Origin: Alphaproteobacteria bacterium | GTDB lineage: Bacteria > Pseudomonadota > Alphaproteobacteria > RF32 > CAG-239 | Direction: 5' to 3' | Assembly: GCA_015062305.1 (NCBI GenBank) | Contig: SUUX01000005.1 | Span: 21,741-85,740, forward strand | Length of the DNA stretch: 64,000 nt | Part shown: positions 42,655 to 64,000 of the stretch, piece after piece | Numbering within the stretch: the stretch's first letter is position 1 | How the letters are laid out: each line of letters begins with the position of its first letter | Position numbers and translations under genes: made by a program | The notes under the pieces: generated by a model | What the model was told of the DNA's origin: nothing | Seen by the model: only the letters and a program-made list of their open reading frames with translations | Database searches by the model: none

Positions 42655-42796
42655 TCGCTTAATCCTTATCTGTTATATGTTTTTTCAATATCTTTACACT
42701 CCTTATCTTCAAAAGTCAAAATATCTTTTGATTATTTGCAGAAAGTATTATATCTTGTTTATGATTTGAATATTTATGTGAAATGGAGTGCCCACT

Positions 42797-43213
42797 ATGG
42801 AAAGAACGTTATCTATAATTAAACCAGATGCTGTTAGTCGTAATATAACAGGAAAAGTCAATGCTATGATAGAAAATGAAGGCTTGAAAATAGTGGCACA
42901 AAAAATGATTTGTCTGACAACAAAGCAGGCTGAGGAATTTTATGCAGAGCACAAAGGTAAGCCTTTTTTTGAGAATTTGGTTGGATTTATGACTTCTGCT
43001 CCGGTGGTTGTACAAGTTTTACAAGGAGAAAATGCGGTTGCTAATTATCGAAAGATTATGGGAGCAACTAATCCGGCTGTTGCTGAAGAGGGTACGATCA
43101 GAAAGACGTTTGCTTTGTCTATAGATAAGAACACAGTTCATGGTTCTGATTCTGTTGATAGTGCCAAGAGAGAAATTGGTTTCTTTTTTAGTGAATTAGA
43201 TATTTGCGAATAG
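42797..43213 (+). CDS. ndk: Nucleoside-diphosphate kinase
   Basis: [31 protein letters not shown]. Confidence 0.96.
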
Positions 43214-43223
43214 GAGTTGTTAG

Positions 43224-44270
43224 GTGTTTAGGTGTGGACTTTTGCTTTTGTTAGCAATGCTGTTGTGGAATGGCCAGGCTTTTGCAGATGAACGCTATGC
43301 AGTAGAAGTTAGTGTAGATGTAACGGATAGTAGTGCAGCGGTGGCACAACAAAGAGCTATGAACGAGGCTTATCGTGCGGCAGTAGTTACAGTTGCCAGA
43401 AAAGTGACAACTCCGGAAGGCGCTGCAAAAATTGCCGCAATGACAAATGAACAGTTGGTGAATTTTATTAAAGAAGTTTCGGTTATTGAAGAAAAGCGTT
43501 CGGCAGTGAGATATATGGCAAAACTAAAGGTGGTTTTGAATGAAGAGATGCTCCGAGAATATATGAAAGAAAGAGATATTCCGGTAATGAAAAATATGTC
43601 TCACAAGGTTTTGGTTGTGCCGGTATTTAGAGAATTTAGCTCGGATGCTCCAATGTTGTGGGAAAGCGCAAATTTGTGGCGTCAAGCATGGGACAAAGTT
43701 GGTGTTGCAGGAATGATAAAAATTGTGCCTTTATCTTCCAGTGGTTTTAATTATGCCGTGATAGATGGTAATAAGGCTTTGGCTATGGATGGTGAAGCCT
43801 TGGATAAATTGATGCGTTTGAATGGGGCAGATGATGTTTATGTGCTAGATGCTATCTATGACGGAATCGAGGGATTGACTGTAAAAGCAACGTCTTATAG
43901 TGGAGATAGAAAAACAATAAAAGTATCTGGCCCCAGAAGTTCGGGAATGGAGTTGTTTGATAAGGCTGTTGCCGAGGTGAAGACCGAACTGGAAAACAGA
44001 ATCGCAAAACAAAGTGTTGCTGAAGCATCTATGGAAGATGTGATTGTTGTGTTATATAACTTTGCACAATTGTCCGATTGGGTAATGACGGAAAATACTT
44101 TGAAAGAAATACCTATAGTGAATAACTTGGAGGTTCAGGCATTGGGTGCCGGCAAGGCTCAGTTTAAATTGGTGTTCAATGGTTCTATGGAAAAACTGAT
44201 ACAGTTGTTGTCTGAAAAGTCTTATCGGTTGGTTGAACATGGAAGTTATTATAGTTTAGAACGCTATTAG
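43224..44270 (+). CDS. DUF2066-like exported protein
   Basis: Signal peptide, V.VDVT..SA..AQQRAM, Y.A.L.V, LWE..N.WRQAW; usual neighbour of the AI-2E gene in alphaproteobacteria. Confidence 0.75.
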   Translation: MFRCGLLLLLAMLLWNGQAFADERYAVEVSVDVTDSSAAVAQQRAMNEAYRAAVVTVARKVTTPEGAAKIAAMTNEQLVNFIKEVSVIEEKRSAVRYMAKLKVVLNEEMLREYMKERDIPVMKNMSHKVLVVPVFREFSSDAPMLWESANLWRQAWDKVGVAGMIKIVPLSSSGFNYAVIDGNKALAMDGEALDKLMRLNGADDVYVLDAIYDGIEGLTVKATSYSGDRKTIKVSGPRSSGMELFDKAVAEVKTELENRIAKQSVAEASMEDVIVVLYNFAQLSDWVMTENTLKEIPIVNNLEVQALGAGKAQFKLVFNGSMEKLIQLLSEKSYRLVEHGSYYSLERY

Positions 44271-44283
44271 GGAGTAAAAATTT

Positions 44284-45342
44284 ATGGTTGTTACAAAAAA
44301 GAATCGGAATGTAATGATCTGGTTGATAATTTTGTTACTTTTTGGAGCAGCTGTTTATGTGTTGCGCTCAGTGTTAATGCCATTTGTGGCCGGAATAATA
44401 ATCGGTTATTTATTAGATCCGTGGGCAAGCAAGTTTGAAAAGTTGGGGATGAATCGAACATGGGCTACAATTTTGACAATGTTTTTGTTGGTTTTGGTTT
44501 TGGTACCGACGCTGGTGGCTTTGTTTGGGGTGATAGATAATCAATTGGGACATTTTTTGAGTGTGTTGCCGGAATATATGTCTGCCTTGATAAAAAAAAT
44601 TGAACCTTTAATTGTTAGTTTGCAAGAGAGATTCCCTGCTATGGAAGCAGACAAAATCAGAGAAGCTATCAGAGGTAATATGGGGAATGCTTTGCGAATG
44701 GCCGGAAATTTGTTGCGAAAGCTGGTTAGTGGCGGTTTTGCTCTGATGAATATTTTATCTTTGATATTGATTACACCTGTTGTGGCTTTTTATATGCTCA
44801 GAGATTGGAAACCTTTTGTGAAGAAGGTTGATGATTTATTGCCTAAGCATTCAAAGAAAAATATTGAAAAACAGGCTAAGGAAATTGATGGAATTTTGTC
44901 TTCTTTTATTAGAGGTCAATTATCTGTTTGCGTGTTACTTGGCACGTTTTATGCTGTGGGGCTTTATTTGGTGGGATTAGATTTGGGAGTGTTGGTAGGT
45001 TTTATTGCAGGTATAATCTCTTTTATTCCATATGTTGGCTCTATTTTTGGTTTTGTAGTTAGTTTGGGAATAGCTTTTGCTCAGTTTGATAGCTTAATGC
45101 CTATAGCTCAAGTTGTTGGAGTGTTTATGATTGGGCAATTTATTGAAGGAAATTTCTTGACGCCAAATTTAGTTGGTGATTCTGTAGGATTGCATCCGGT
45201 TTGGATAATGTTTGCGTTGCTGGCTGGTGGTGTTCTTTTGGGATTTTTGGGGCTAATGGTGGCCGTGCCGGTTGCTGCAATAATCGGCGTTATTGTTAGA
45301 CATGCTATTGATAATTATAAAGAAAGTTCACTATACAAATAA
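44284..45342 (+). CDS. AI-2E/PerM family transporter
   Basis: PVVAFYMLRDW, FIRGQ, FIPYVG, EGNFLTPNLVGDSVGLHP. Confidence 0.93.
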   Translation: MVVTKKNRNVMIWLIILLLFGAAVYVLRSVLMPFVAGIIIGYLLDPWASKFEKLGMNRTWATILTMFLLVLVLVPTLVALFGVIDNQLGHFLSVLPEYMSALIKKIEPLIVSLQERFPAMEADKIREAIRGNMGNALRMAGNLLRKLVSGGFALMNILSLILITPVVAFYMLRDWKPFVKKVDDLLPKHSKKNIEKQAKEIDGILSSFIRGQLSVCVLLGTFYAVGLYLVGLDLGVLVGFIAGIISFIPYVGSIFGFVVSLGIAFAQFDSLMPIAQVVGVFMIGQFIEGNFLTPNLVGDSVGLHPVWIMFALLAGGVLLGFLGLMVAVPVAAIIGVIVRHAIDNYKESSLYK

Positions 45343-45580
45343 AATCAGATAAATGGCATGTCTATTATATGTAATTGTTGTTTAACACCGTCTAAAATAA
45401 CTGCTATACCAAACTTTCAGGCAGACAGAGTTTGTATACCAACTAGCTAATTGCTTGTCTCCCTTCCCCTCCAATACCTTGAGTTTAAAAGATGTTTTTT
45501 GGTGGGTGTTTTAATACTTATTTAATTTTAAGAGATTATCATAACCTCGATTTTATGTATATGCGATTGCGAGGTTTGTT

Positions 45581-46657
45581 ATGTTGCAATATTTGTTTAA
45601 TGTTATTTCTGCTCCTGATTATTTGAATACAGTATATTCTCGCTGTTTTATGGCTTTTTTTGTGGCTTTGATTTTGAGCCTATCTTTTGGTGACAGGTTA
45701 ATTAAATTTTTGCGAGCTCATCAGAAAAAAGGACAGCCAATCAGAGATGATGGTCCTCAATCGCATTTGCTGACCAAAAAAGGAACGCCGACAATGGGAG
45801 GAATCTTGATTTTGGGAAGCTCTATTTTAGCTATGTTGCTGTGTGCTGATTTGACTAATCCTTTAATTTGGGTTTCTATTTTGGTTCTGGTTGTATATGG
45901 CGTTGTGGGAGCTATTGATGATTATACAAAAGTGAAAAAACAATCGGCAAATGCTATGACTGCAAGAATGAAATTGCTTTTGCAATTTTCTACGGCGTTG
46001 ATTGCAGTATTGGTTATATCTTTTGAAATGCCTGAGAAGGATAGATTTGTTTTGACACTGCCATATCTTTGGGACTGGTCTTTGAATTTGTGTTGGTTCT
46101 ATGTGCCTTTTGCAATGGTTGTGATTGCAGGAGCATCTAATGCAGTTAATTTGACAGATGGATTAGATGGTTTGGCTTCGGGTTTGATGGTGATTGCCTT
46201 GCCGGTGTTTATGGTTATAGCTTATATTTGTGGATCTGATTTGGTGAAAGATGTGTATATGATGCCAGTGCCTATGGCGGGAGAAATTGCGGTTAGCTGT
46301 GCGGCTGTGATTGGTGCATGTTTGGGCTTTTTATGGTTTAATGCTGCTCCGGCAAAGGTTTTTATGGGCGATACTGGTTCTTTGGCTTTGGGTGCTTATT
46401 TGGGAACAATATCTGTAATGCTAAAACATGAAATTTTGTTGGCAATTGTGGGGTTTGTATTTGTGGCAGAGGCTTTGTCGGTAATTATGCAAGTGTATTG
46501 GTTTAAGCATACCGGAGGAAAAAGAATATTTAAGATGGCTCCAATACATCATCATTTTGAACAATGTGGATGGCCTGAGACCAGAGTTGTTGTGCGATTT
46601 TGGTTGATAGGTATTGTGTTGGCGGTATTGGGTTTTTTAGCTATTCAATATAAGTAA
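45581..46657 (+). CDS. mraY: Phospho-MurNAc-pentapeptide transferase
   Basis: KKGTPTMGG, IDDY, NAVNLTDGLDGL, FMGDTGS, MAPIHHHFE all intact. Confidence 0.96.
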   Translation: MLQYLFNVISAPDYLNTVYSRCFMAFFVALILSLSFGDRLIKFLRAHQKKGQPIRDDGPQSHLLTKKGTPTMGGILILGSSILAMLLCADLTNPLIWVSILVLVVYGVVGAIDDYTKVKKQSANAMTARMKLLLQFSTALIAVLVISFEMPEKDRFVLTLPYLWDWSLNLCWFYVPFAMVVIAGASNAVNLTDGLDGLASGLMVIALPVFMVIAYICGSDLVKDVYMMPVPMAGEIAVSCAAVIGACLGFLWFNAAPAKVFMGDTGSLALGAYLGTISVMLKHEILLAIVGFVFVAEALSVIMQVYWFKHTGGKRIFKMAPIHHHFEQCGWPETRVVVRFWLIGIVLAVLGFLAIQYK

Positions 46658-46673
46658 AAAGAAGGGGAACGGA

Positions 46674-47804
46674 ATGTTAATTTTTTCCAGAACGAATCGG
46701 GGAATACTTGCCAACTGGTGGTGGACAGTTGATAAACCTTTGTTGACAATGATTTCGACCTTGATTGTTTTGGGTGCTTTTTTGACTTTTTCGGCTTCTC
46801 CTGCCGTGGCCAACAGAATAGGAGAAGGGACGTTTCATTTTATTGCTAAGCAATTTATATTTTTGCCAATTGCAACCGTGGGAATGTTGGTGTTGTCTAT
46901 GCTCAGTTTGAAGCAGATTAGGCGAGTTGCTGTGTTGGGGTATGTGGTGACAATAATTATGATGATTTTGACACTTTTTTGGGGTGTCGAAATTAAAGGT
47001 GCTAAACGTTGGATAGATTTGGGTTTTTTTAGCTTGCAGGCATCTGAATTTGTGAAGCCCACATTTATTATTGCTGCGGCATGGCTTTTTGAAGGGCAAA
47101 AGAAATATACTGATTTTCCTGGAAATTTGCTGTCTATTGGTTTGTATGTTTTTACCTTGGCTTTGTTGTTGTTGCAACCTGATGTTGGTATGTCAATTGT
47201 ATTGACACTAATTTGGGGGTTTCAGTTCTTTTTGGCCGGTTTGCCTTGGATTTTGGTGGGCGGTTTTTTGTTGTTGATTTTGGTGGCTGCCGGAGGTGTG
47301 TATGTGTTTTTTCCGCATGTGCAAGCACGAGTACAACAGTTTTTGGCCGATGGAAATAATTTGAGTTATCAAGTTAAGCGCTCTTTGGAGGCTTTTGAAA
47401 AAGGTGGTTTTTGGGGTGTCGGCCCTGGTGAGGGTGTGGTGAAAATGTATATCCCTGATGCACATACGGATTTTATTTTTGCGGTGGCAGCAGAAGAATA
47501 TGGAATGCTTTTGTGTCTATTGATTGTGGGGTTGTATGCCGGTATTGTGATTAGGTCTTTTATGATATCGGGTAAAGATAATAATTTGTTTATAATATTG
47601 GCAACTTGCGGTTTGGCAGCAAGTTTGGGTTTGCAAGGCATTATTAATATGGCATCTACATTACATTTGGGGCCAACAAAGGGAATGGCTTTGCCTTTTA
47701 TTTCTTATGGCGGGTCTTCTTTGTTGGCAGCTGCAGGTGGAATGGGAATGTTATTGGCTATTACTCGCAAAAATGTGCATGCGGAGGATCAAGATGAAAA
47801 CTGA
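46674..47804 (+). CDS. ftsW: SEDS peptidoglycan polymerase FtsW
   Basis: GAKRWI, QASEFVK, QPDVG, PDAHTDFIF, PFISYGGSS. Confidence 0.95.
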   Translation: MLIFSRTNRGILANWWWTVDKPLLTMISTLIVLGAFLTFSASPAVANRIGEGTFHFIAKQFIFLPIATVGMLVLSMLSLKQIRRVAVLGYVVTIIMMILTLFWGVEIKGAKRWIDLGFFSLQASEFVKPTFIIAAAWLFEGQKKYTDFPGNLLSIGLYVFTLALLLLQPDVGMSIVLTLIWGFQFFLAGLPWILVGGFLLLILVAAGGVYVFFPHVQARVQQFLADGNNLSYQVKRSLEAFEKGGFWGVGPGEGVVKMYIPDAHTDFIFAVAAEEYGMLLCLLIVGLYAGIVIRSFMISGKDNNLFIILATCGLAASLGLQGIINMASTLHLGPTKGMALPFISYGGSSLLAAAGGMGMLLAITRKNVHAEDQDEN

Positions 47805-48897
47805 ACAGAAAAATAAATTAATTGTTTTGACAGCAGGAGGAACAGGAGGTCATGTATATCCTGCAGAAGCATTGGCTGAAGAGTTGGAAAAAAGAGGATA
47901 TGCTTTGATGTTGGTTACGGACAAGCGAGGCAAAAACAATTATAAAGGAAGACTTGGTCAAATGCCAAATGTGGCGGTATTGTCTGGTGGTGTGGTTGGA
48001 AAATCTAAGTTGTTTAAATTACAAAGTTTGCTTAAAACAGCATTGGGAACACTGCAAGCTCTTTGGGTGTTGTATCGAAATAAGCCGGTGTGTGTGGTTG
48101 GGTTTGGCGGATATGCTTCTTTTCCGGCTTCGGTTGCCGCAATTTTGTCGGGAACAGATTTGGTTATTCATGAACAAAATTCTGTAATGAGTAGGACTAA
48201 CAGATTTTTGAGTAAGTATGCAGAAATTGTGGCTCAGAGTTTTAGGAAGGTTAAATATGCTCCATCGGAGGAGAAAACAGTATTGTGTGGTATGCCGGTG
48301 AGAGCTGCAATTGTAGAAGCAGCAAAAAAAGGTTATCCGACATTAAAAGAAAATGATAAATTGCAGATATTGGTGTTGGGCGGAAGTCAAGGAGCTAAAA
48401 TATTTGGCGATGTTATACCTGCTGCAATTGCAAAATTAGGAAAAAAGCAAGCCGCAAAAATTAGGATCTATCAGCAATGCAGAGTTGGACAAGAAAATGA
48501 AATTGCCGCAGCTTATGAGGGAACAGGTGTAGAATTGGTGGTGAAACACTTTTTTGAAAATATGGATGAATTGTATGCCGGTTCTCATATTGTTATATCT
48601 AGAGCAGGTGCTTCTTCGGTGTCTGAAATTGCAGTGGTGGGGGTTCCTTCAATCTTGGTGCCTTTGCCAACGGCAGCAGATGATCATCAGACATCTAATG
48701 CTGTCGAAATTGCAGATGCCGGAGCAGGGATTGTGATTAAACAAAAAGAATTTTCTCCGGATAGATTGAAAAAAGTAATAGAAGAATGGGCAGGGGATTA
48801 TTGTAAACTAAAGTTGATGTCTGAGGCAGCACAGAAGGTTTCGATAAAAGATGCGGCTAAAAGATTGGCAGATGCTATTGAAAAGAAAATAAGTTAG
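47794..48897 (+). CDS. murG: Lipid I GlcNAc transferase
   Basis: GGTGGHVYPA, GFGGY, HEQN, GGSQGA, RAGASS, DDHQTSN; start ATG 47794. Confidence 0.96.
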   Translation: MKTEQKNKLIVLTAGGTGGHVYPAEALAEELEKRGYALMLVTDKRGKNNYKGRLGQMPNVAVLSGGVVGKSKLFKLQSLLKTALGTLQALWVLYRNKPVCVVGFGGYASFPASVAAILSGTDLVIHEQNSVMSRTNRFLSKYAEIVAQSFRKVKYAPSEEKTVLCGMPVRAAIVEAAKKGYPTLKENDKLQILVLGGSQGAKIFGDVIPAAIAKLGKKQAAKIRIYQQCRVGQENEIAAAYEGTGVELVVKHFFENMDELYAGSHIVISRAGASSVSEIAVVGVPSILVPLPTAADDHQTSNAVEIADAGAGIVIKQKEFSPDRLKKVIEEWAGDYCKLKLMSEAAQKVSIKDAAKRLADAIEKKIS

Positions 48898-48913
48898 AAT
48901 TGGGGAGGCTAAA

Positions 48914-49837
48914 ATGTTTGGTTTGGGCAAAAAAAAGAATGACTTGGTGAAGTTGTTGCCAGAAATTAGGGGAAAATATCTGTGCAATGAACCAATGTCT
49001 AAACATACATGGTTTGCAGTTGGGGGACCAGCTGAGGTTATGTTTTGCCCAAAAGATGATGCTGATTTGAGCTGGTTTTTGAAAGCAAAACCATATAATT
49101 TGCCTATTTGTGTGGTTGGCGGTGGTTCTAATTTGTTGGTTAGAGATGGAGGTATTCCCGGAGTTGTGATTAAGTTGGAGGGGAGCTTTTTTAGGCGATG
49201 GAAGCTTGATGACGGATATATTACATGTGGAGCAGGATTGCGGAATGCAGATTTGAAAAAAATTATGTTGGAAAATAAATTGGGGGGACTTGAGTTTTTG
49301 GTTTCTATTCCCGGACATTTGGGGGGAGCTGTTAAAACAAATGCCGGATGTTTTGGAAAAGAACTCAAGGACGTCTTGCTGCGGGCAACTATTATAAACG
49401 GAGAAGGGGAAATCCGTGAAGTGCCCGCAGATGATTTATCTTTATCTTATCGTAGTAGTTTGTTTCCTGATGATTGGATTATTTTGGCTTTGACGCTGAA
49501 GGTGGAAAATAAGGAGCCGGAAGAAACATTAAAAATCTTAAATGAGCAAAAAAATTATCGTTTGAAAAATCAGCCTCATAATGTAAAGACAGCGGGCTCT
49601 ACGTTTAAGAATCCGGAGGGTTTACGTGCGTGGGAATTGATAAAAAAATCAGGATGTGCCGATTTGCATATTAATGGTGCAAAGGTTTCTGAAAAACATT
49701 GTAATTTTTTGGTTAACGCAAATGGGGCAACAGCCGCTGATATTGAGTTGCTGGGTGAAACAATTGTTGCAAAAGTGAAAGAAAAAACTTCTATTGTATT
49801 GGAATGGGAAGTAAAAAGATTGGGTATTAATAAATAA
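48914..49837 (+). CDS. murB: UDP-N-acetylenolpyruvoylglucosamine reductase
   Basis: VGGPA, GGGSNLLVRDGG, IPGxLGGA..NAG, SYR, GSTFKNP, KHCNF, LEWEV. Confidence 0.95.
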   Translation: MFGLGKKKNDLVKLLPEIRGKYLCNEPMSKHTWFAVGGPAEVMFCPKDDADLSWFLKAKPYNLPICVVGGGSNLLVRDGGIPGVVIKLEGSFFRRWKLDDGYITCGAGLRNADLKKIMLENKLGGLEFLVSIPGHLGGAVKTNAGCFGKELKDVLLRATIINGEGEIREVPADDLSLSYRSSLFPDDWIILALTLKVENKEPEETLKILNEQKNYRLKNQPHNVKTAGSTFKNPEGLRAWELIKKSGCADLHINGAKVSEKHCNFLVNANGATAADIELLGETIVAKVKEKTSIVLEWEVKRLGINK

Positions 49838-49846
49838 AAAGATAAC

Positions 49847-50722
49847 ATGACTGATAAAACTGATAATGTAACAAACAAACAAGTAAAGACACCCAAGCTT
49901 CTGAAGCCAGCTAATGAGTGGCCTTTACGCATGGTTGGAACAATTTTAGTATTGTCAGTGATTGTTTTTCTTGCTGGAACAATATTGTTTTTTAAGAATG
50001 ATGTTTTGGGCAAGCAGTTGGACAAGATGATGGTTTCACTGTATGATTGGTGTGGTCAGCAGGGAATGGTTTTGAGTGATGTTGTTGTTTCTGGTCGAGG
50101 GCGAACATCTAAGGAAGATGTTGAAAAAGCCGTGGCGGTGAATCGTGGCGATAACATGCTGAAAATGGATATATATGGCATGAAAACCAGATTGGAAGAA
50201 TTGCCGTGGGTGCAAGAAGCTGTTGTTAGACGAAGTTTTTTTCCAAATGTTTTGAATGTGGAATTGGTGGAAAAACAAGTAAAAGCAATTTGGCAAATTA
50301 ATGAAAAATTTTATCCATTGGATAGTGAGGGAAAGATAATAAATGCAGAATTTAAAATAGATGCACCGATATTGTTGATTGTTGGAGCCGGAGCTCCGGA
50401 TAATTTTAAAAATTTGATGGAGGCTCTCCGGGATGGGGATAAAGATTATATTGAACGAGTAAAGGTGGCTAATTTTATTTCTGGTAGACGTTGGAATTTG
50501 ATACTTGATGATATCAGACATGGTGTAACGATTAAGTTGCCGGAAGAAGATATTGCTAAAGCGTGGAAAAAATTGGTGCATTTAGATGAAAAAAAAGGTA
50601 TCTTTAAGCGTAAATTAACCATCATTGATTTAAGATTACCTAACAAGGTTATTGTAAAACTGCGTAAGGGCGTGGTTGATGATTCTGCAGGACTTGCTGG
50701 TGCTGTGGAACATAGGATATAA
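49847..50722 (+). CDS. ftsQ: Cell division protein FtsQ
   Basis: One TM segment, POTRA (LEELPWV..A.VRR.FP), RRWNL, IDLRLP. Confidence 0.92.
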   Translation: MTDKTDNVTNKQVKTPKLLKPANEWPLRMVGTILVLSVIVFLAGTILFFKNDVLGKQLDKMMVSLYDWCGQQGMVLSDVVVSGRGRTSKEDVEKAVAVNRGDNMLKMDIYGMKTRLEELPWVQEAVVRRSFFPNVLNVELVEKQVKAIWQINEKFYPLDSEGKIINAEFKIDAPILLIVGAGAPDNFKNLMEALRDGDKDYIERVKVANFISGRRWNLILDDIRHGVTIKLPEEDIAKAWKKLVHLDEKKGIFKRKLTIIDLRLPNKVIVKLRKGVVDDSAGLAGAVEHRI

Positions 50723-50731
50723 GAGGAAAAA

Positions 50732-51991
50732 ATGGGAACACATTCGTTTAATAGAGCGACAACCATAGCTGCTTTGGATATTGGATCATCTAAAGTTTGC
50801 TGTGTTATTGCAAAAATAGGTCGTGATAAACGAATTAATGTTGTCGGATATGGGTGCAATGCGGCTAAAGGGATAAAAAATGGAGTGGTTACAGATATTA
50901 ATCAGGCCACAATATCTGTTGGAAACGCTGTTGATGCTGCAGAGCAGATGGCTAATGAAAGAATTAACCGTGTAATTGTTAATGTATCCGGAGATAAAAT
51001 TAAGAGTGTTATTAAAACATCGACAATAGCATTAAGTCGTAATCGTCCTGTAAATGAGGGTGATTTGGTGAAAGTTGTTGATAAGGGAATACATAAAATT
51101 AATGTTGAAGGATGTGAGCTAATTCATTGTTTGCCAACGAATTATCGTTTGGATAGCGGAGAAGATATTAAAGACCCTCGAAATATTTTTGGAGAGAATC
51201 TGTCAGTTGATATTTTGTTGGGTTCTGTGCCGGATATTCAGTATAGAAATGTGTCTAATGTTGTTGGAAATGCAACGTTGGAAATTGCCGGAAAGGCCTT
51301 TTCGTCTTATGCATCAGGATTGGCGTGTTTGGTTGATGACGAGAGAGAGCTTGGCGCTACCGTGATTGATATGGGAGGAGGAACCACCTCAATTGCTTGT
51401 TTTAAGCATGGGTTTCCATTTTATTTTGCGTCATTGCCGGTTGGCGGAAATAATGTTACAAATGATATTGCATATGGTTTGACCACGTCATTTTCTCATG
51501 CAGAGAGGTTGAAAGTTTTGCATGGGTGTGCTTTTTTGAGCAGCCAAGATAATGAAGAAACAATTAATGTGTATCCGGTTGGTGAAGAAGATGATAGTTG
51601 TATAAAACAAATTCCCAGAGCAGAGCTGATTAGTATTATAACACCCCGTATTGAGGAAACTTTTGAAATGGTGAATCGTAAATTGGCAGAAGCTGGTTTG
51701 CAGGATATATCTAGTCATAGAGTTGTTTTGACAGGTGGGGCTTCTCAGTTAGCAGGGGTGCGAGAAATTGCGTCGATTGTTTTGGATAAACAAGTTCGTT
51801 TAGGACGCCCTAAAAATATTTTAAATCTGCCAGATAAATTATGTGGTGCATCTTATTCCACATGCATAGGATTGTTGCTTTTTGCTCTGAATTATACTGA
51901 AAGAAAGCCGGGGAAAGTGGTGAATAAGCCTGTGCGTAATGGTGATAGTGGATTAGGCAAAGTGTTTTCTTGGTTGAAGCAAAATTTTTAG
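50732..51991 (+). CDS. ftsA: Cell division protein FtsA
   Basis: LDIGSSKV, IDMGGGTT, VGGNNVTNDIA, VLTGGASQL. Confidence 0.95.
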   Translation: MGTHSFNRATTIAALDIGSSKVCCVIAKIGRDKRINVVGYGCNAAKGIKNGVVTDINQATISVGNAVDAAEQMANERINRVIVNVSGDKIKSVIKTSTIALSRNRPVNEGDLVKVVDKGIHKINVEGCELIHCLPTNYRLDSGEDIKDPRNIFGENLSVDILLGSVPDIQYRNVSNVVGNATLEIAGKAFSSYASGLACLVDDERELGATVIDMGGGTTSIACFKHGFPFYFASLPVGGNNVTNDIAYGLTTSFSHAERLKVLHGCAFLSSQDNEETINVYPVGEEDDSCIKQIPRAELISIITPRIEETFEMVNRKLAEAGLQDISSHRVVLTGGASQLAGVREIASIVLDKQVRLGRPKNILNLPDKLCGASYSTCIGLLLFALNYTERKPGKVVNKPVRNGDSGLGKVFSWLKQNF

Positions 51992-52090
51992 TTTTTTTCA
52001 AAAAAAAATATGTTGGTAACCAAAACTTAAGGTATTGTGTTTTATCCTAAAGGTAATATGAAATCTTAGGTTTTGGGAGAAATTTATACA

Positions 52091-53773
52091 ATGTCAATTA
52101 AATTAGCTGTTCCAGATAAAAATGTTATGCAATTGAAACCTCGAATCTCTGTTATTGGTGTCGGCGGCGGTGGTGGTAATGCCGTCAATAATATGATATC
52201 TCAAAACTTAGAGGGAATCGATTTTATTGTAGCAAACACAGATGCTCAAGCTTTGGAAAACTCTAAGACGAATCGTAGGATTCAGCTTGGTTTAGAGACA
52301 ACTAAAGGTTTGGGCGCAGGAGCCCGTCCAGAGGTTGGGCGTTTGTCTGCAGAAGAAGCAAGAGAAGAAATTGAGCGTGAGCTTGATGGTGCAAATATGG
52401 TGTTTATTACTGCCGGTATGGGTGGTGGTACAGGTTCCGGTGCTGCTCCTGTTGTAGCAAAAATTGCAAAAGATAAAGGTATACTTACGGTTGGTGTGGT
52501 AACAAAGCCTTTTCAGTTTGAAGGCAAAAAACGTTATGAAACAGCAGAAAAAGCATTAGAAGAGTTTACTAAAGAAGTTGATAGTATCATTGTTATTCCA
52601 AACCAAAATCTATTTAGAATCGCAGATAAAAAAACCACATTGGTAGATGCTTTTGTGATGGCTGATAATGTGTTGTATGCAGGTGTGCGTTCTATTACAG
52701 ATTTGATGATGATGCCTGGTCTTATTAACTTGGACTTTGCCGATATAAAATCTATTATGGAAGATAAAGGTAAAGCAATAATGGGAACAGGAGAGGCCGA
52801 AGGTGAGGATAGAGCTATTAAAGCTGCAGAACAGGCTTTGGCAAATCCTCTATTAGATGATTGTTCTATGCATGGGGCCAAAGGTGTTTTGATAAATATT
52901 ACCGGTGGTTCTGATATTACATTGTTTGAAATTGATGAGGCAGCTAGCAGAATCAAGGAAGAAGTTGATGATGATGCTAATATTATTTTCGGTTCTAGTT
53001 TTGATGACACATTAGATGGTAAAATTAGGGTATCTATTGTTGCTACAGGTATTGAAGGTGAAGGTATTAAAAGAAACCAGTTTTCTCCAGTGTTGAAAAA
53101 ACAAGAAGAGCCTGCGGTTAGAATTGAGCCAGAAGTTGCAGCAACTCCAAGAGAGGTTGTTGCCACCAATTTGGAAACATTTGCAGCTGTTAGGCCAGTA
53201 GATATAGAAAATGTTGTTAATATTATTGAAGAGGCAACGGTAGCTCCTTTGAGTGTGGCTGAAAGTGAGCCGGAAGTTGTTTCTGCCGTATCAAATGAAG
53301 TGCAACCGGTGAAGTTTAATGATTTTGATATGATAGAGAGATCTACTGTATTGGAAGATATGCCAAATGCAACTTCTTTGTTTAAGGCTATTATTAATAA
53401 GTCTGACGACATGAACGAGGTTTCTCAAATGGAAACAGCATTGTCCTCAGCAGAAAATAATTTTAGGCCAAAGAGTTCTCTTCGTGTTGTGGAAGAAGAA
53501 CCTGAATTATTCCCTGAGCATGCTAGTAATGTAGTGTTGCCTAGAAGGCAGGAAGAACCTGAGCAATTGATAAAGAGCTCTGAAGAAGAGGAGGAACATA
53601 TTCCGACTTTTATTGAAAGAGTTACAGGTTTTTCTATCGCTAAAAGAAATCGTAAAAAATTGAAAGAGACTGAACGTGTTCAAGAGCCTGTTTCTTCATC
53701 TTTTGCAAGTGATGATTATGGGACGGAAGATCGCTTGAATTTGGAAATTCCTTCATTTTTACGCCGTAGATAG
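52091..53773 (+). CDS. ftsZ: Cell division protein FtsZ (long alphaproteobacterial linker)
   Basis: [25 protein letters not shown]-terminal LEIPSFLRR; start ATG 52091. Confidence 0.97.
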
Positions 53774-53809: not shown

Positions 53810-53842
53810 AAAAAGAACCGATGTATGTCGGTTCTTTTTTTT
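53810..53842. terminator. Bidirectional terminator between ftsZ and hdaA
   Basis: aaaaagaaccga/tcggttcttttt. Confidence 0.8.
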
Positions 53843-62099: not shown

Positions 62100-62900
62100 T
62101 TATGGGCAGATAAACTCAGCTAATTTTTTGATTTCCATTTTTGCGGCAAGGTGAGATATGTTCATCTTGCGGCGTAGTGGTTCTGATTGCATATCTAGGA
62201 CAGTAAGACCGTCTAAAAATAATTCTCTATATATTACACGATCCTTGAGACCTTCGCAAAAACGAAAGCCATATAGCTTGCCCAGTTTTTCTAAGACTTC
62301 AAAAATATAGGCTTTGTTTTTTGATCTGTTAGTCGAGGTCTTGTTGCCACTGATAATCCAGTTGAGGCAAGGTTTGCCTTTGGATGCAAGCTGTTTTTTT
62401 ATTTCCCATACAAATTCTGCATAAGGGCCCGGGGTTTGCAATGCACCACTGGTTGGGTCTATATTGGCAATACTGCTCAAATCGATTAGACTATCTGTTA
62501 TTGGGGTTATTAGAGTATCTGCATATTCATGAGCCGCTTCAAAAAGATAGTTTTTGTGACCGGGAGTGTCAATGATGATAGCATCAACCTTGGGAGCAAT
62601 TTCGTTTATAGTTTCTTTTAATTTTTTTATCTCAGAAGGTATCTGTGAATAATCATTTGTCGGTTCGAATCGGTAATGCAGAGGAATCGGCAAATTAATT
62701 TTGTTGTTGCTGCAGAATTGGCGCCTGTTTTCTATATATTTGGACAAAGATCCTTGGCGTCCATCCAGGTCAATGACAGCAACGGTGTATTTTTCTTGCA
62801 TGAGCTTAACTGCCAAATGCATTGTAAATGTTGATTTTCCTGTGCCACCTTTTTCGTTGCCAATTACAATCATATATGTGGAAGATGTGTTATTTGTCAT
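62100..62900 (-). CDS. mipZ: Division-plane positioning ATPase MipZ
   Basis: GNEKGGTGKST, IDLDGRQ, IDTPG, DRVIYRELFLDGLT. Confidence 0.92.
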   Translation of the reverse strand: MTNNTSSTYMIVIGNEKGGTGKSTFTMHLAVKLMQEKYTVAVIDLDGRQGSLSKYIENRRQFCSNNKINLPIPLHYRFEPTNDYSQIPSEIKKLKETINEIAPKVDAIIIDTPGHKNYLFEAAHEYADTLITPITDSLIDLSSIANIDPTSGALQTPGPYAEFVWEIKKQLASKGKPCLNWIISGNKTSTNRSKNKAYIFEVLEKLGKLYGFRFCEGLKDRVIYRELFLDGLTVLDMQSEPLRRKMNISHLAAKMEIKKLAEFICP

Positions 62901-64000
62901 TGTTTGCTCTCAGCCATTGCTAGTTGTGGAGTTTTTGTCATTGCTACGACTATACAAGATTTGTTTGATCTTTTCAAACTATTACATGTTTTATCCGCTT
63001 CATTTTTTTTGAGGCCTATAATTTTTGAGCGATATATAACTGCGGCACCTTTTTTGGTGGGTTCTATATCTATATCAGCTTGTCTTACAGAGGCAATCTG
63101 AGCTTGTTTGCGGATATTTAGAGCATAAGAACGAGCTTTGGCATAATTGGAGAACGCACCAACTTGAATGCTCCACTTTTTGTTTGCTTGTATTTTTTTG
63201 TTGTGTGTGTGTTGTTTGGGAAGTTCAGCGTAAAGTTTAGGGGCTTCCATTTTGGATGCCAATGTTAGCTTGTTTAAGCCTTTATTCATCATATTGGCAA
63301 TTTGTTTGTCACGACTTTTGATGGTGTTGTGTCCCATGGTTACGGCAATTACGCGATGTCCATTGCGTTGTGCAGATGTGACAATGTTGTAGCCGGCAGC
63401 GTTAGTAAAACCTGTTTTCATGCCATCGGCACCAGCAAAATTTTTGAGCAAGTGATTATGTGTGTAATATGTGCGTCCACCATAAGAAAATTTCTTGGTA
63501 GAAAACAATTTGTAATATTGCGGAAAATGATGATATAGAGCGGCACCTAAAATAGCCATATCTCTTGCGGTGCTTTTTTGTGCTTTGTTGGGCAAGCCAG
63601 AGGCATTTTTGAAAGTCGTACTCTTCATACCGAGTTCTTTTGCCACTTTTGTCATGGTTTGAGCGAATCTTTCTTCGCTGTATCCAAGACCTTCTGCCAA
63701 AACGGTGGCGCAATCATTTGCCGATTTTACAATAAGAGCCATAACAGCATCTTTAACTTTTATTTTTTCTCCGGCTCTAAGACCGAGCTTTGAAGGAGAA
63801 CGATTTGCTGCCGTACGAGAGACTGGCAACATATCTTCCATCTTTATAATGCCTTTATCTAAGGCATTGAAAGTAATATATAGAGTCATCATTTTGGTTA
63901 GAGAAGCAGGATAACGACGTTCATCAGCATTAGATGCGGACAGAACATCTCCTGTTTCGGCATCTATCATTATGGATGATATTGTGCGTTTGGCGGCTTC
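62897..64000 (-). CDS. D-Ala-D-Ala carboxypeptidase (S11) with C-terminal SPOR domain, 5'-truncated by window end
   Basis: PASLTK (SxxK), SAN (SxN), KTG motifs; WSIQVGAF SPOR start; frame open to position 64000. Confidence 0.92.
   Translation of the reverse strand, partial: EAAKRTISSIMIDAETGDVLSASNADERRYPASLTKMMTLYITFNALDKGIIKMEDMLPVSRTAANRSPSKLGLRAGEKIKVKDAVMALIVKSANDCATVLAEGLGYSEERFAQTMTKVAKELGMKSTTFKNASGLPNKAQKSTARDMAILGAALYHHFPQYYKLFSTKKFSYGGRTYYTHNHLLKNFAGADGMKTGFTNAAGYNIVTSAQRNGHRVIAVTMGHNTIKSRDKQIANMMNKGLNKLTLASKMEAPKLYAELPKQHTHNKKIQANKKWSIQVGAFSNYAKARSYALNIRKQAQIASVRQADIDIEPTKKGAAVIYRSKIIGLKKNEADKTCNSLKRSNKSCIVVAMTKTPQLAMAESKQ

Follow-up and report, generated by a model that had tools for sequence, protein, structure and literature searches.

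A division and cell wall cluster without Mur ligase genes in uncultured gut Alphaproteobacteria, with dispersed ligases and a candidate replacement of MurC

The cluster of cell division and wall genes (dcw) has one of the best-conserved gene orders of bacteria. Here, we describe a dcw locus that holds no gene for any ligase of the peptidoglycan stem peptide, located in a 64,000-nucleotide stretch of DNA (hereafter the window; C12:21741-85740) from the draft genome of an alphaproteobacterium (hereafter the source genome; 1,466,421 bp in 19 contigs, 100% complete, 0.12% contamination). The locus consists of seven collinear plus-strand genes, mraY-ftsW-murG-murB-ftsQ-ftsA-ftsZ (45581-53773), identified from the list of open reading frames (ORFs) and an NCBIfam scan, and its ligase-free state holds across at least 17 genera. 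The explanation that we favour, and as a whole consider very probable, is that the cluster has been dispersed, that the ligases are encoded elsewhere in the genome and that two of them are non-orthologous replacements. The window locus would be the membrane-step and divisome core of a dcw cluster fragmented in the ancestor of the family, with the ligase genes persisting singly elsewhere, namely murE on contig C13, murF on C15, murD on C4, ddl on C8 and a MurC-family gene on C3.

Gene order in the window and its relatives

The ORFs of the window were listed and their products scanned with NCBIfam and Pfam profiles (Table 1). Between mraY and ftsZ, the window ORFs and the NCBIfam scan contain neither a ligase gene nor a ligase relic, and the position of murF in canonical clusters is taken by an AI-2E family transporter gene. 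Both points had been made in a preliminary description, drawn from the letters of this DNA alone, and both stand, the transporter on NCBIfam matches that are each below cut-off. The catalytic motifs reported there for MraY, MurB and MurG were likewise located in the translations: DD (56, 113), GDTGS (263) and HHH (323) in MraY, SYR (178), GSTFKN (228) and EWE (297) in MurB, and GGTGGH (44) in MurG. FtsZ carries its GGGTGSG motif.

A scan of the window MraY against species-representative genomes gave 24 loci (MraY 56-84% identical), all from metagenome-assembled genomes (MAGs) of uncultured gut Alphaproteobacteria, sampled from the gut of humans, roe deer, rabbits and others. Of these loci, 19 span all seven genes, in the same order, and five are truncated at the end of a contig; none of the 24 carries a Mur ligase gene in the interval from mraY to ftsZ. 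Additionally, 20 further loci were taken from one or two genomes from each of 18 genera in the order, and the 19 of them that belong to the window's family also have no in-cluster ligase. In 10 of the 24 related loci, ndk, the 348-aa ORF and the AI-2E gene precede mraY on the same side as in the window.

An artefact of assembly or binning, with mis-joined window junctions or ligase contigs of foreign origin, is scarcely credible. The draft state of the genome in 19 contigs and the position of murE on a short contig of 15.8 kb would allow for it, but the same junctions recur in the 24 independent MAG loci and in another 19 genomes of the family, contamination is 0.12%, G+C is uniform, and the ligase orthologs track the structure of genus and family. 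The preliminary description had itself raised an artefact at these junctions, and their recurrence, with a ligase in 0/24 related loci, disposes of that concern.

The canonical order quoted in the preliminary description was recovered in all six fully covered loci from other alphaproteobacterial families (mraZ-rsmH-ftsI-murE-murF-mraY-murD-ftsW-murG-murC-murB-ddl-ftsQ-ftsA), and the E. coli locus has the complete canonical order except murB. In likeness to this order, the remaining window genes keep their order, strand and the 3'-end ftsQAZ, with mraY, ftsW, murG, (murB), ftsQ, ftsA and ftsZ collinear on one strand, and their proteins are 42-52% identical to alphaproteobacterial orthologs. Unlike it, the window locus is without murE, murF, murD, murC, ddl and the mraZ-ftsI module; ndk, the 348-aa ORF and the AI-2E gene stand directly 5' of mraY in place of murE-murF, and the former sites of murD (mraY/ftsW), murC (murG/murB) and ddl (murB/ftsQ) now measure only 16, 16 and 9 bp, exactly the gaps first described.

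The sister family, of which one genome was sampled (G001), keeps the arrangement rsmH-ftsI-murE-...-mraY-ftsW-murG-murC-murB-ftsQAZ, a cluster without murD, murF and ddl that retains ftsI-murE upstream and the canonical murC inside. By parsimony, murD, murF and ddl would already have been out of the cluster that the sister family keeps, the window's family would then have split off the ftsI block with murE and lost the canonical murC, and six genera would later have replaced the in-cluster murG by a divergent copy elsewhere. In these six genera (g3, g5, g11, g12, g13 and g16; L078, L080, L087-L090 and L093) the cluster reads mraY-ftsW-murB-ftsQAZ, with murG also out. That murG has been lost from these genomes was rejected, since they have a divergent MurG-like gene at another site (190-229 bits, under the cut-off of 250).

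Break-up of the dcw cluster is not in itself new: a passage in PMC10214165 states that conservation of dcw gene order is lost in non-rod-shaped species, and in our data a Rickettsiaceae MAG (L037) retains together only murE-murF-mraY. In contrast to such rearranged clusters of non-rod or reduced-genome bacteria, the break-up in the window's family is selective, in that all ligase genes are gone whereas the membrane-step genes, murB and the divisome genes remain tightly packed.

Ligases and other wall genes elsewhere in the source genome

The preliminary description had proposed a loss of the ligase pathway in the organism. Profile searches of the genome found MurE, MurF, MurD and Ddl above their cut-offs on other contigs (Table 1), together with MurA (573 bits), MurI (193.7 bits, cut-off 146.65), MurJ, FtsI, an alanine racemase domain (Alr), four transpeptidase domains of penicillin-binding proteins and one MurC-family ligase; Mpl stayed under its cut-off. 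The Mur_ligase_M matches number four, all scattered single genes, and no FolC-type protein was detected among them. The mraZ-rsmH-ftsL-ftsI genes are set apart as a block on C4; murD lies some 9 kb away from it on the other strand. The MurE has a GTNGKT P-loop and, at 394-397, the motif DNPR, which we take to mark enzymes that add diaminopimelate (DAP). Since the ligases, Ddl and the supply genes are found in the genome, the pathway to UDP-MurNAc-pentapeptide is, judged by gene content, encoded there, and the cell would make an ordinary DAP-type peptidoglycan.

It is highly improbable, in our view, that the organism has lost its stem-peptide ligases and builds its wall from scavenged stems, with a foreign ligase set or as an atypical polymer. 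Such a loss would agree with the ligase-free cluster, with the absence of the canonical murC from the genome, with the failure to find DAP synthesis genes and with the loss that sister genera do display (see below), but intact ORFs for MurD, MurE, MurF and Ddl lie over their cut-offs in the same genome, next to MurI and Alr, and the ligases are conserved across the genus with a host-like composition. G+C is 36-42% in the ligase genes and the contigs that carry them (37.8% in the genome), and 18 of the 20 further genomes sampled from the window's genus have a MurD ortholog of 60-70% identity. Because of this composition and genus-wide conservation, the ligase contigs were rejected as contaminants, and with them in place pathway loss in the source genome was rejected as well.

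On C8, ddl is the first gene of a minus-strand run ddl-miaA-VanX-like dipeptidase-mreB-mreC-mreD-pbp2-rodA (L052:4515-12976). The D-Ala-D-Ala ligase gene is here shifted from the division to the elongation cluster, near a gene for a VanX-like D-Ala-D-Ala dipeptidase.

Probable relocation and replacement of ligases

The holes in the cluster would have arisen by two routes. Along the first, vertically inherited murE, ddl and probably murF would have been relocated. Compared with MurE from seven further alphaproteobacterial lineages, the source MurE is 43-51% identical; the value is 51% for the MurE inside the sister family's cluster and 32-34% for other phyla. The source Ddl is 42-51% identical to alphaproteobacterial Ddl; for comparison, the cluster's own MurB and MraY give 42-50% and 46-52% within the Alphaproteobacteria against 32-34% and 38-45% in other phyla. 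On these identities, murE and ddl look like vertically inherited genes that have moved. The MurF values (32-35% in Alphaproteobacteria, 24-33% in other phyla) are too divergent to say much; in a FastTree tree MurF falls within the alphaproteobacterial clade with weak support (0.57-0.90), and murF has probably also been inherited vertically and relocated.

Along the second route, non-orthologous copies would have displaced the original genes, murC giving way to a paralog and murD to a non-alphaproteobacterial type. Identity of the source MurD is 24-29% with its alphaproteobacterial counterparts and 36% with the MurD of the sister family, and the source and sister-family proteins form a clade outside the alphaproteobacterial MurD clade, with a split support of 0.999 (FastTree, 14 rows). 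MurC was tallied at class level in 41 genomes, that is, the source genome and a sample of 40 other alphaproteobacterial families, including the unpublished G112, on which no other result depends. Canonical MurC was found in 39 of them (393-542 bits), the exceptions being the source genome (300 bits) and one genome of 0.5 Mb (240 bits). Beside the canonical MurC, 4 of the 40 other-family genomes carry a second MurC-like gene (261-330 bits), and the sister-family genome G001 has its in-cluster murC and a second copy on a different contig. With these second copies the source protein shares 35-45% identity, against only 28-32% with canonical MurC, including the in-cluster protein of G001. In a quick maximum-likelihood tree, the second copies and the MurC-like proteins of the window's family form one clade (SH-aLRT 97), here labelled MurC2; canonical MurC, whether from Alphaproteobacteria or from other phyla, falls outside it. 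When E. coli MurC and Mpl were included, a FastTree tree likewise divided the proteins into MurC, Mpl and MurC2.

Orthology of MurC2 with canonical MurC was rejected on this tree and on the co-occurrence of the two in one genome. As these comparisons have it, the window's family lost the canonical dcw murC and keeps MurC2 alone, and replacement applies to two of the five ligases, murC and murD. Of the replacement put forward in the preliminary description, these two remain (a MurC2 paralog, and a MurD outside the alphaproteobacterial clade) and murE, ddl and murF drop out. That description had also named vertically inherited ligases elsewhere in the genome as the finding that would speak for simple relocation: murE and ddl are of this kind, murF weakly so, and murC and murD are not.

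The sites at which the dispersed genes have landed differ between genera. In genus g2 (G005, L077:1256-2164), ddl lies about 2.7 kb 3' of ftsZ on the same strand, and in a roe-deer MAG MurC2 lies just past ftsZ on the opposite strand (L017:10269-11627). Further, two genomes of the window's own genus, G033 and G056 (L114, L115), have a MurD just 35-36% identical to that of the source genome, and no MurI; MurC2 is present in two copies, of which one clusters with a different genus. This pattern suggests gene exchange inside the family and perhaps an alternative D-Glu route.

MurC2 between MurC and Mpl

Simple relocation, in which the C3 ligase is a fast-evolving true MurC that adds only L-Ala and nothing but gene order has changed, is possible, if rather doubtful, and the properties of MurC2 bear on it from both sides. 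Like canonical MurC, MurC2 is a three-domain Mur ligase (PF01225, PF08245, PF02875) with the P-loop GKT, and MurC provides both its best NCBIfam model (TIGR01082, 300.5 bits) and its best PDB match (9ir5, 179 bits, with the Mpl structures 3hn7 and 3eag at 74 and 51 bits). The EADESD segment of MurC type is retained and the Mpl insert absent, and the MurD and MurE of the genome need UDP-MurNAc-L-Ala. The source subclade stands on a long branch (0.58 in the quick maximum-likelihood tree), which could mean a re-specialisation on L-Ala, and linkage to ldcA is largely missing among the listed genomes of its own genus.

Against this stand, in addition to the co-occurrence of the paralog clade and canonical MurC (4 of the 40 other families, and the sister family), a score below the MurC cut-off (335.1) and the residues of the amino acid site. 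In the passages of Das et al. 2011 (PMC3060825) that concern Haemophilus influenzae MurC, the incoming amino acid is bound by Tyr346, His348, His376, Arg377 and Arg380. Aligned to 1gqq, the source MurC2 has Phe, His, His, Thr and Ser at these positions, so that three of the five (Tyr346, Arg377, Arg380) are altered. Where canonical MurC reads DDY[GA]HHP ... QPH[RK][YF][ST]R, MurC2 proteins have DDFAHNP ... QPHGF[SAG]P and then an insertion of four residues, and the source subclade is more diverged (NDFAHNP ... QPHTPFSAVNTG). E. coli Mpl shares with MurC2 the change of Tyr346 to Phe, the loss of the Arg377/Arg380 motif (HRYxR) and an insertion just after it.

MurC2 is nonetheless unlike E. coli Mpl in scoring under the Mpl cut-off (TIGR01081; 151.1 bits for the source protein and 121-172 for clade members, cut-off 388.7), in forming a clade of its own and in lacking the motif (S/T)AFFDKRSK, which a passage of PMC3060825 calls specific to Mpl; E. 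coli Mpl has CAFFDKRSK and none of the 14 MurC2-clade rows displayed has it. In the source genome, unlike in E. coli, the enzyme is moreover the sole member of the MurC family and does not adjoin ldcA. Membership in the Mpl family was rejected on the model score and the missing motif, and MurC2 is probably a third subfamily of the MurC/Mpl group, able to load peptides. Because MurD and MurE are retained, we infer that MurC2 must add L-Ala in the source genome. A passage of PMC3060825 reports that overexpressed E. coli Mpl rescues a murC(ts) mutant, with weak addition of L-Ala possible. Given the murein-peptide-ligase features of its clade, MurC2 may additionally load recycled or scavenged tripeptide. 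The Mpl-like scavenging suggested in the preliminary description would in this form be an added capacity that these peptide-binding features make possible; as a substitute for a missing pathway it falls away.

The three relatives of the source MurC2 that carry NCBI names (P0033, P0104, P0111) are all called "hypothetical protein", and in consequence annotated genomes of the group appear to be without murC.

Gene context of MurC2 and recycling genes

Recycling genes were surveyed in 81 genomes, a sample of the order whose members are mutually related, so that counts are not independent events. Carboxypeptidase genes of the S66/LdcA type are present in all 81, and the source genome has three of the LdcA type. 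Among the 71 genomes with a listed MurC-like row, at least 47 have an S66 gene no more than 1.5 kb from MurC2, with adjacency in at least 44 of the 50 outside the window's genus, which speaks against simple relocation, and in at least 3 of the 21 within it. The conserved arrangement comprises a ~280-aa ORF, MurC2, LdcA and a convergent M50B-like gene; in the source genome MurC2 is flanked in the same way but for LdcA, whose place is vacant, and the closest S66 copy of this genome is on C8. AmpG is over its cut-off and an AmpD-like Amidase_2 domain present in 80/81 genomes each, the source included. In this near-universal set of AmpG, AmpD-like amidase and LdcA, the window's order resembles E. 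coli, where LdcA prevents the loading of tetrapeptide by Mpl, and differs from the model alphaproteobacterium Caulobacter, which has neither LdcA nor Mpl (both according to passages in PMC13046382).

The ~280-aa ORF, which matches nothing in Pfam or NCBIfam, immediately precedes MurC2 in both of the order's families (L003:277-1140 (+), L075:2171-3010, L096:558-1397) and may be an extra member of the MurC2-LdcA unit.

Loss of murD, murE and murI in sister genera

The loss that had been pictured for the organism of the window is not seen in the source genome and does occur in sister genera: murD, murE and murI are missing in 30 of the 81 genomes, all of the window's own family, 99-100% complete and spread over nine genera, each of which is all-or-none. 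They include G006, G009, G015, G039, G047, G048, G054 and G060, together with 22 others (loci L060-L075). MurD is over its cut-off in the other 51, and the same 51 are found with the source MurD as query; MurI is over its cut-off in 39 of the 81 and in none of the 30. Two Mur_ligase_M matches remain in 28 of the 30, three in one and none in one, and in all eight genera checked the two ligases are orthologs of the source MurF (52-64%) and MurC2 (44-52%). Ddl is kept in 29, MraY in all 30 (81/81 overall) and MurG or a MurG-like gene in all 30; MurA was found in the three genomes tested. The genomes with two ligases also retain MurB, FtsW, AmpG and LdcA. That 28 genomes have MurC2 and MurF as their only two Mur-ligase matches, with both identified in eight of them, is hard to square with a MurC2 that adds only L-Ala, as simple relocation would have it. 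The combination of MurC2, MurF, LdcA, AmpG and AmpD would instead fit obligate salvage of imported murein tripeptide.

Because the murD/murE-less genera occupy at least three to four separate positions in a FastTree tree of MraY, FtsW, MurB, FtsA and FtsZ, the loss has probably recurred repeatedly; this tree is tentative, and at that level it does not support a single origin. As functional clues, the neighbours of murF and MurC2 in the sister genera ([FeFe] hydrogenase, glyA and a transhydrogenase subunit) were uninformative. One genome, G008 (genus g4; L079:4059-12272), a single 1.3 Mb genome that is 99% complete, has an intact mraY-ftsW-murG-murB-ftsQ-ftsA-ftsZ cluster, and genome profile searches found in it no Mur ligase M or C domain, Ddl, MurA, MurI or AmpG.

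Supply of diaminopimelate

DapF was found in 0/81 genomes of the order, the control search being positive in 9 of 14 reference genomes, and DapA and LysA in none of five genomes tested, the source included. The source organism is thus probably unable to make diaminopimelate or lysine. As a DAP-type MurE is present while DapA, DapF and LysA were not found, the cell must, by this reasoning, import DAP or DAP-containing peptides or recycle wall material.

A comparable dependence is known from Tannerella forsythia, a host-associated MurNAc auxotroph that is missing MurA and MurB and relies on the wall building blocks of its neighbours. There the need concerns the sugar part, whereas here it would concern DAP in the source genome and the tripeptide in the sister genera.

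Weight and meaning of the explanation

Several observations weigh against parts of the favoured account of dispersal with two replacements. A salvage role of MurC2 in the source genome is disfavoured by its best NCBIfam and PDB matches, which are MurC, by the absence of the Mpl-specific motif and by the position of its gene, which is not beside an LdcA gene, an adjacency that is also scarce among the listed genomes of its genus. The origins of MurF and MurD are read from small FastTree trees of 13-15 rows, and the phylogeny of MurC from one quick maximum-likelihood tree and one FastTree tree. In a draft of 19 contigs, some pieces of the dcw cluster may be closer together than they appear. Finally, transcription of the seven genes as one unit is drawn from gaps and a hairpin, with a promoter scan at chance level (see below).

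The window's family is apparently drifting towards muropeptide salvage. The stronger proposal, that MurC2 loads whole murein peptides, that the family builds its walls partly from the muropeptides of neighbours and that 29 sister genomes are tripeptide auxotrophs, is tentative, and we would not expect it to hold in full. If true, stems in the source organism would come from de novo synthesis as well as from salvage, with a need for outside DAP, the 29 sister genomes (28 of them with two ligases) would belong to obligate auxotrophs for this tripeptide, L-Ala-D-Glu-mDAP, and the ligase-free dcw core would be the genomic trace of an uncoupling of the cytoplasmic and membrane steps. Some common uncultured gut Alphaproteobacteria would then depend on the wall fragments of others if MurC2 is a peptide ligase, which would explain their resistance to cultivation, recommend DAP or murein tripeptide as a medium supplement, and bear on which NOD-stimulating muropeptides leave the gut lumen.

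A current idea, stated in a passage of PMC10214165, is that the dcw order reflects the assembly of the Mur ligases into a complex. A family in which all ligase genes are out of the cluster and the membrane and divisome genes remain packed represents a natural counter-example for testing it. Searches at the level of titles and abstract openings found no description of a selective, ligase-only break-up of the dcw cluster, of the peptidoglycan genes of these gut Alphaproteobacteria, of genomes with only a MurC-like protein and MurF, or of a MurC paralog of the MurC2 kind, matches to "murC2" concerning Frankia and Streptococcus. Of most interest here are the MurC2 clade and the probably repeated loss of murD, murE and murI around it; rearrangement of the dcw cluster and recycling of the Mpl type were already known.

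Features of the window

Within the cluster, the remaining gaps measure 238 bp between the AI-2E gene and mraY, 9 bp between ftsQ and ftsA, and 81 bp between ftsA and ftsZ. From the gaps of 9-81 bp and the one terminator-like hairpin that follows ftsZ (Table 1), mraY to ftsZ probably form one transcription unit that ends at the hairpin. The 238-bp stretch 5' of mraY is presumed to hold the promoter; a scan of it for the sigma-70 consensus gave 31 sites (35.3 expected), which is the chance level. In its longest form, the murG ORF shares 98 nt with the end of ftsW; beginning it at the in-frame ATG at 47794, possibly the true start, would reduce the overlap to 11 nt; tblastn matches in relatives have a murG/ftsW overlap of similar length. 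The window ftsW is distinct from a separate rodA on C8.

Table 1. Features of the window (positions within the window) and ligase genes on other contigs of the source genome.
Feature	Location	Strand	Evidence and remarks
ndk	42788..43213	+	NF001908 211 bits; upstream context, outside dcw
348-aa ORF	43224..44270	+	conserved, 44-66% identity in relatives; no NCBIfam or Pfam match
AI-2E family transporter	44284..45342	+	AI-2E/YtvI/CxpE models, each below cut-off
intergenic region, 238 bp, 5' of mraY	45343..45580	.	sequence read; presumed promoter region
mraY	45581..46657	+	TIGR00445 373.5 bits, cut-off 192
ftsW, SEDS glycosyltransferase	46674..47804	+	TIGR02614 320.7 bits; best family, just under cut-off of 337.5
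murG	47707..48897	+	TIGR01133 303.8 bits, cut-off 250; match from residue 34
murB	48914..49837	+	NF010480 337.3 bits, cut-off 259
ftsQ	49847..50722	+	weak NF008043 match, 37 bits; position conserved in all relatives
ftsA	50732..51991	+	TIGR01174 335.6 bits
ftsZ, 566 aa, long C-terminal part	52073..53773	+	TIGR00065 411.1 bits, residues 20-339
bidirectional intrinsic-terminator-like hairpin	53810..53839	.	13-pair stem and T-run, 36 bp past ftsZ stop
D,D-carboxypeptidase (S11) with SPOR	62897..64000	-	PF00768 210.5 bits and PF05036; cut by window end
murE	C13		NF001124 549.7 bits, cut-off 476
murF	C15, between glyA and nrdR		TIGR01143 368.5 bits, cut-off 288.6
murD	C4		TIGR01087 284.7 bits, cut-off 211.95
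MurC-family ligase (MurC2)	C3		TIGR01082 300.5 bits, under cut-off 335.1
ddl	C8		NF002378 366.4 bits, cut-off 243; TIGR01205 283.9 bits, cut-off 245.65

Upstream of ndk lies pta-ackA on the opposite strand. The region 3' of the hairpin holds an Hda/DnaA-like gene, a hybrid histidine kinase gene and flagellar export genes on the opposite strand. The D,D-carboxypeptidase-SPOR gene noted in the preliminary description was recovered by its Peptidase_S11 and SPOR matches; directly 3' of it is mipZ, which encodes an FtsZ-positioning ATPase, the pair spanning 62100-64000 (-) about 8 kb from ftsZ. The 348-aa ORF moves together with ndk and the AI-2E gene even where this block is inverted or relocated (L023, L029).

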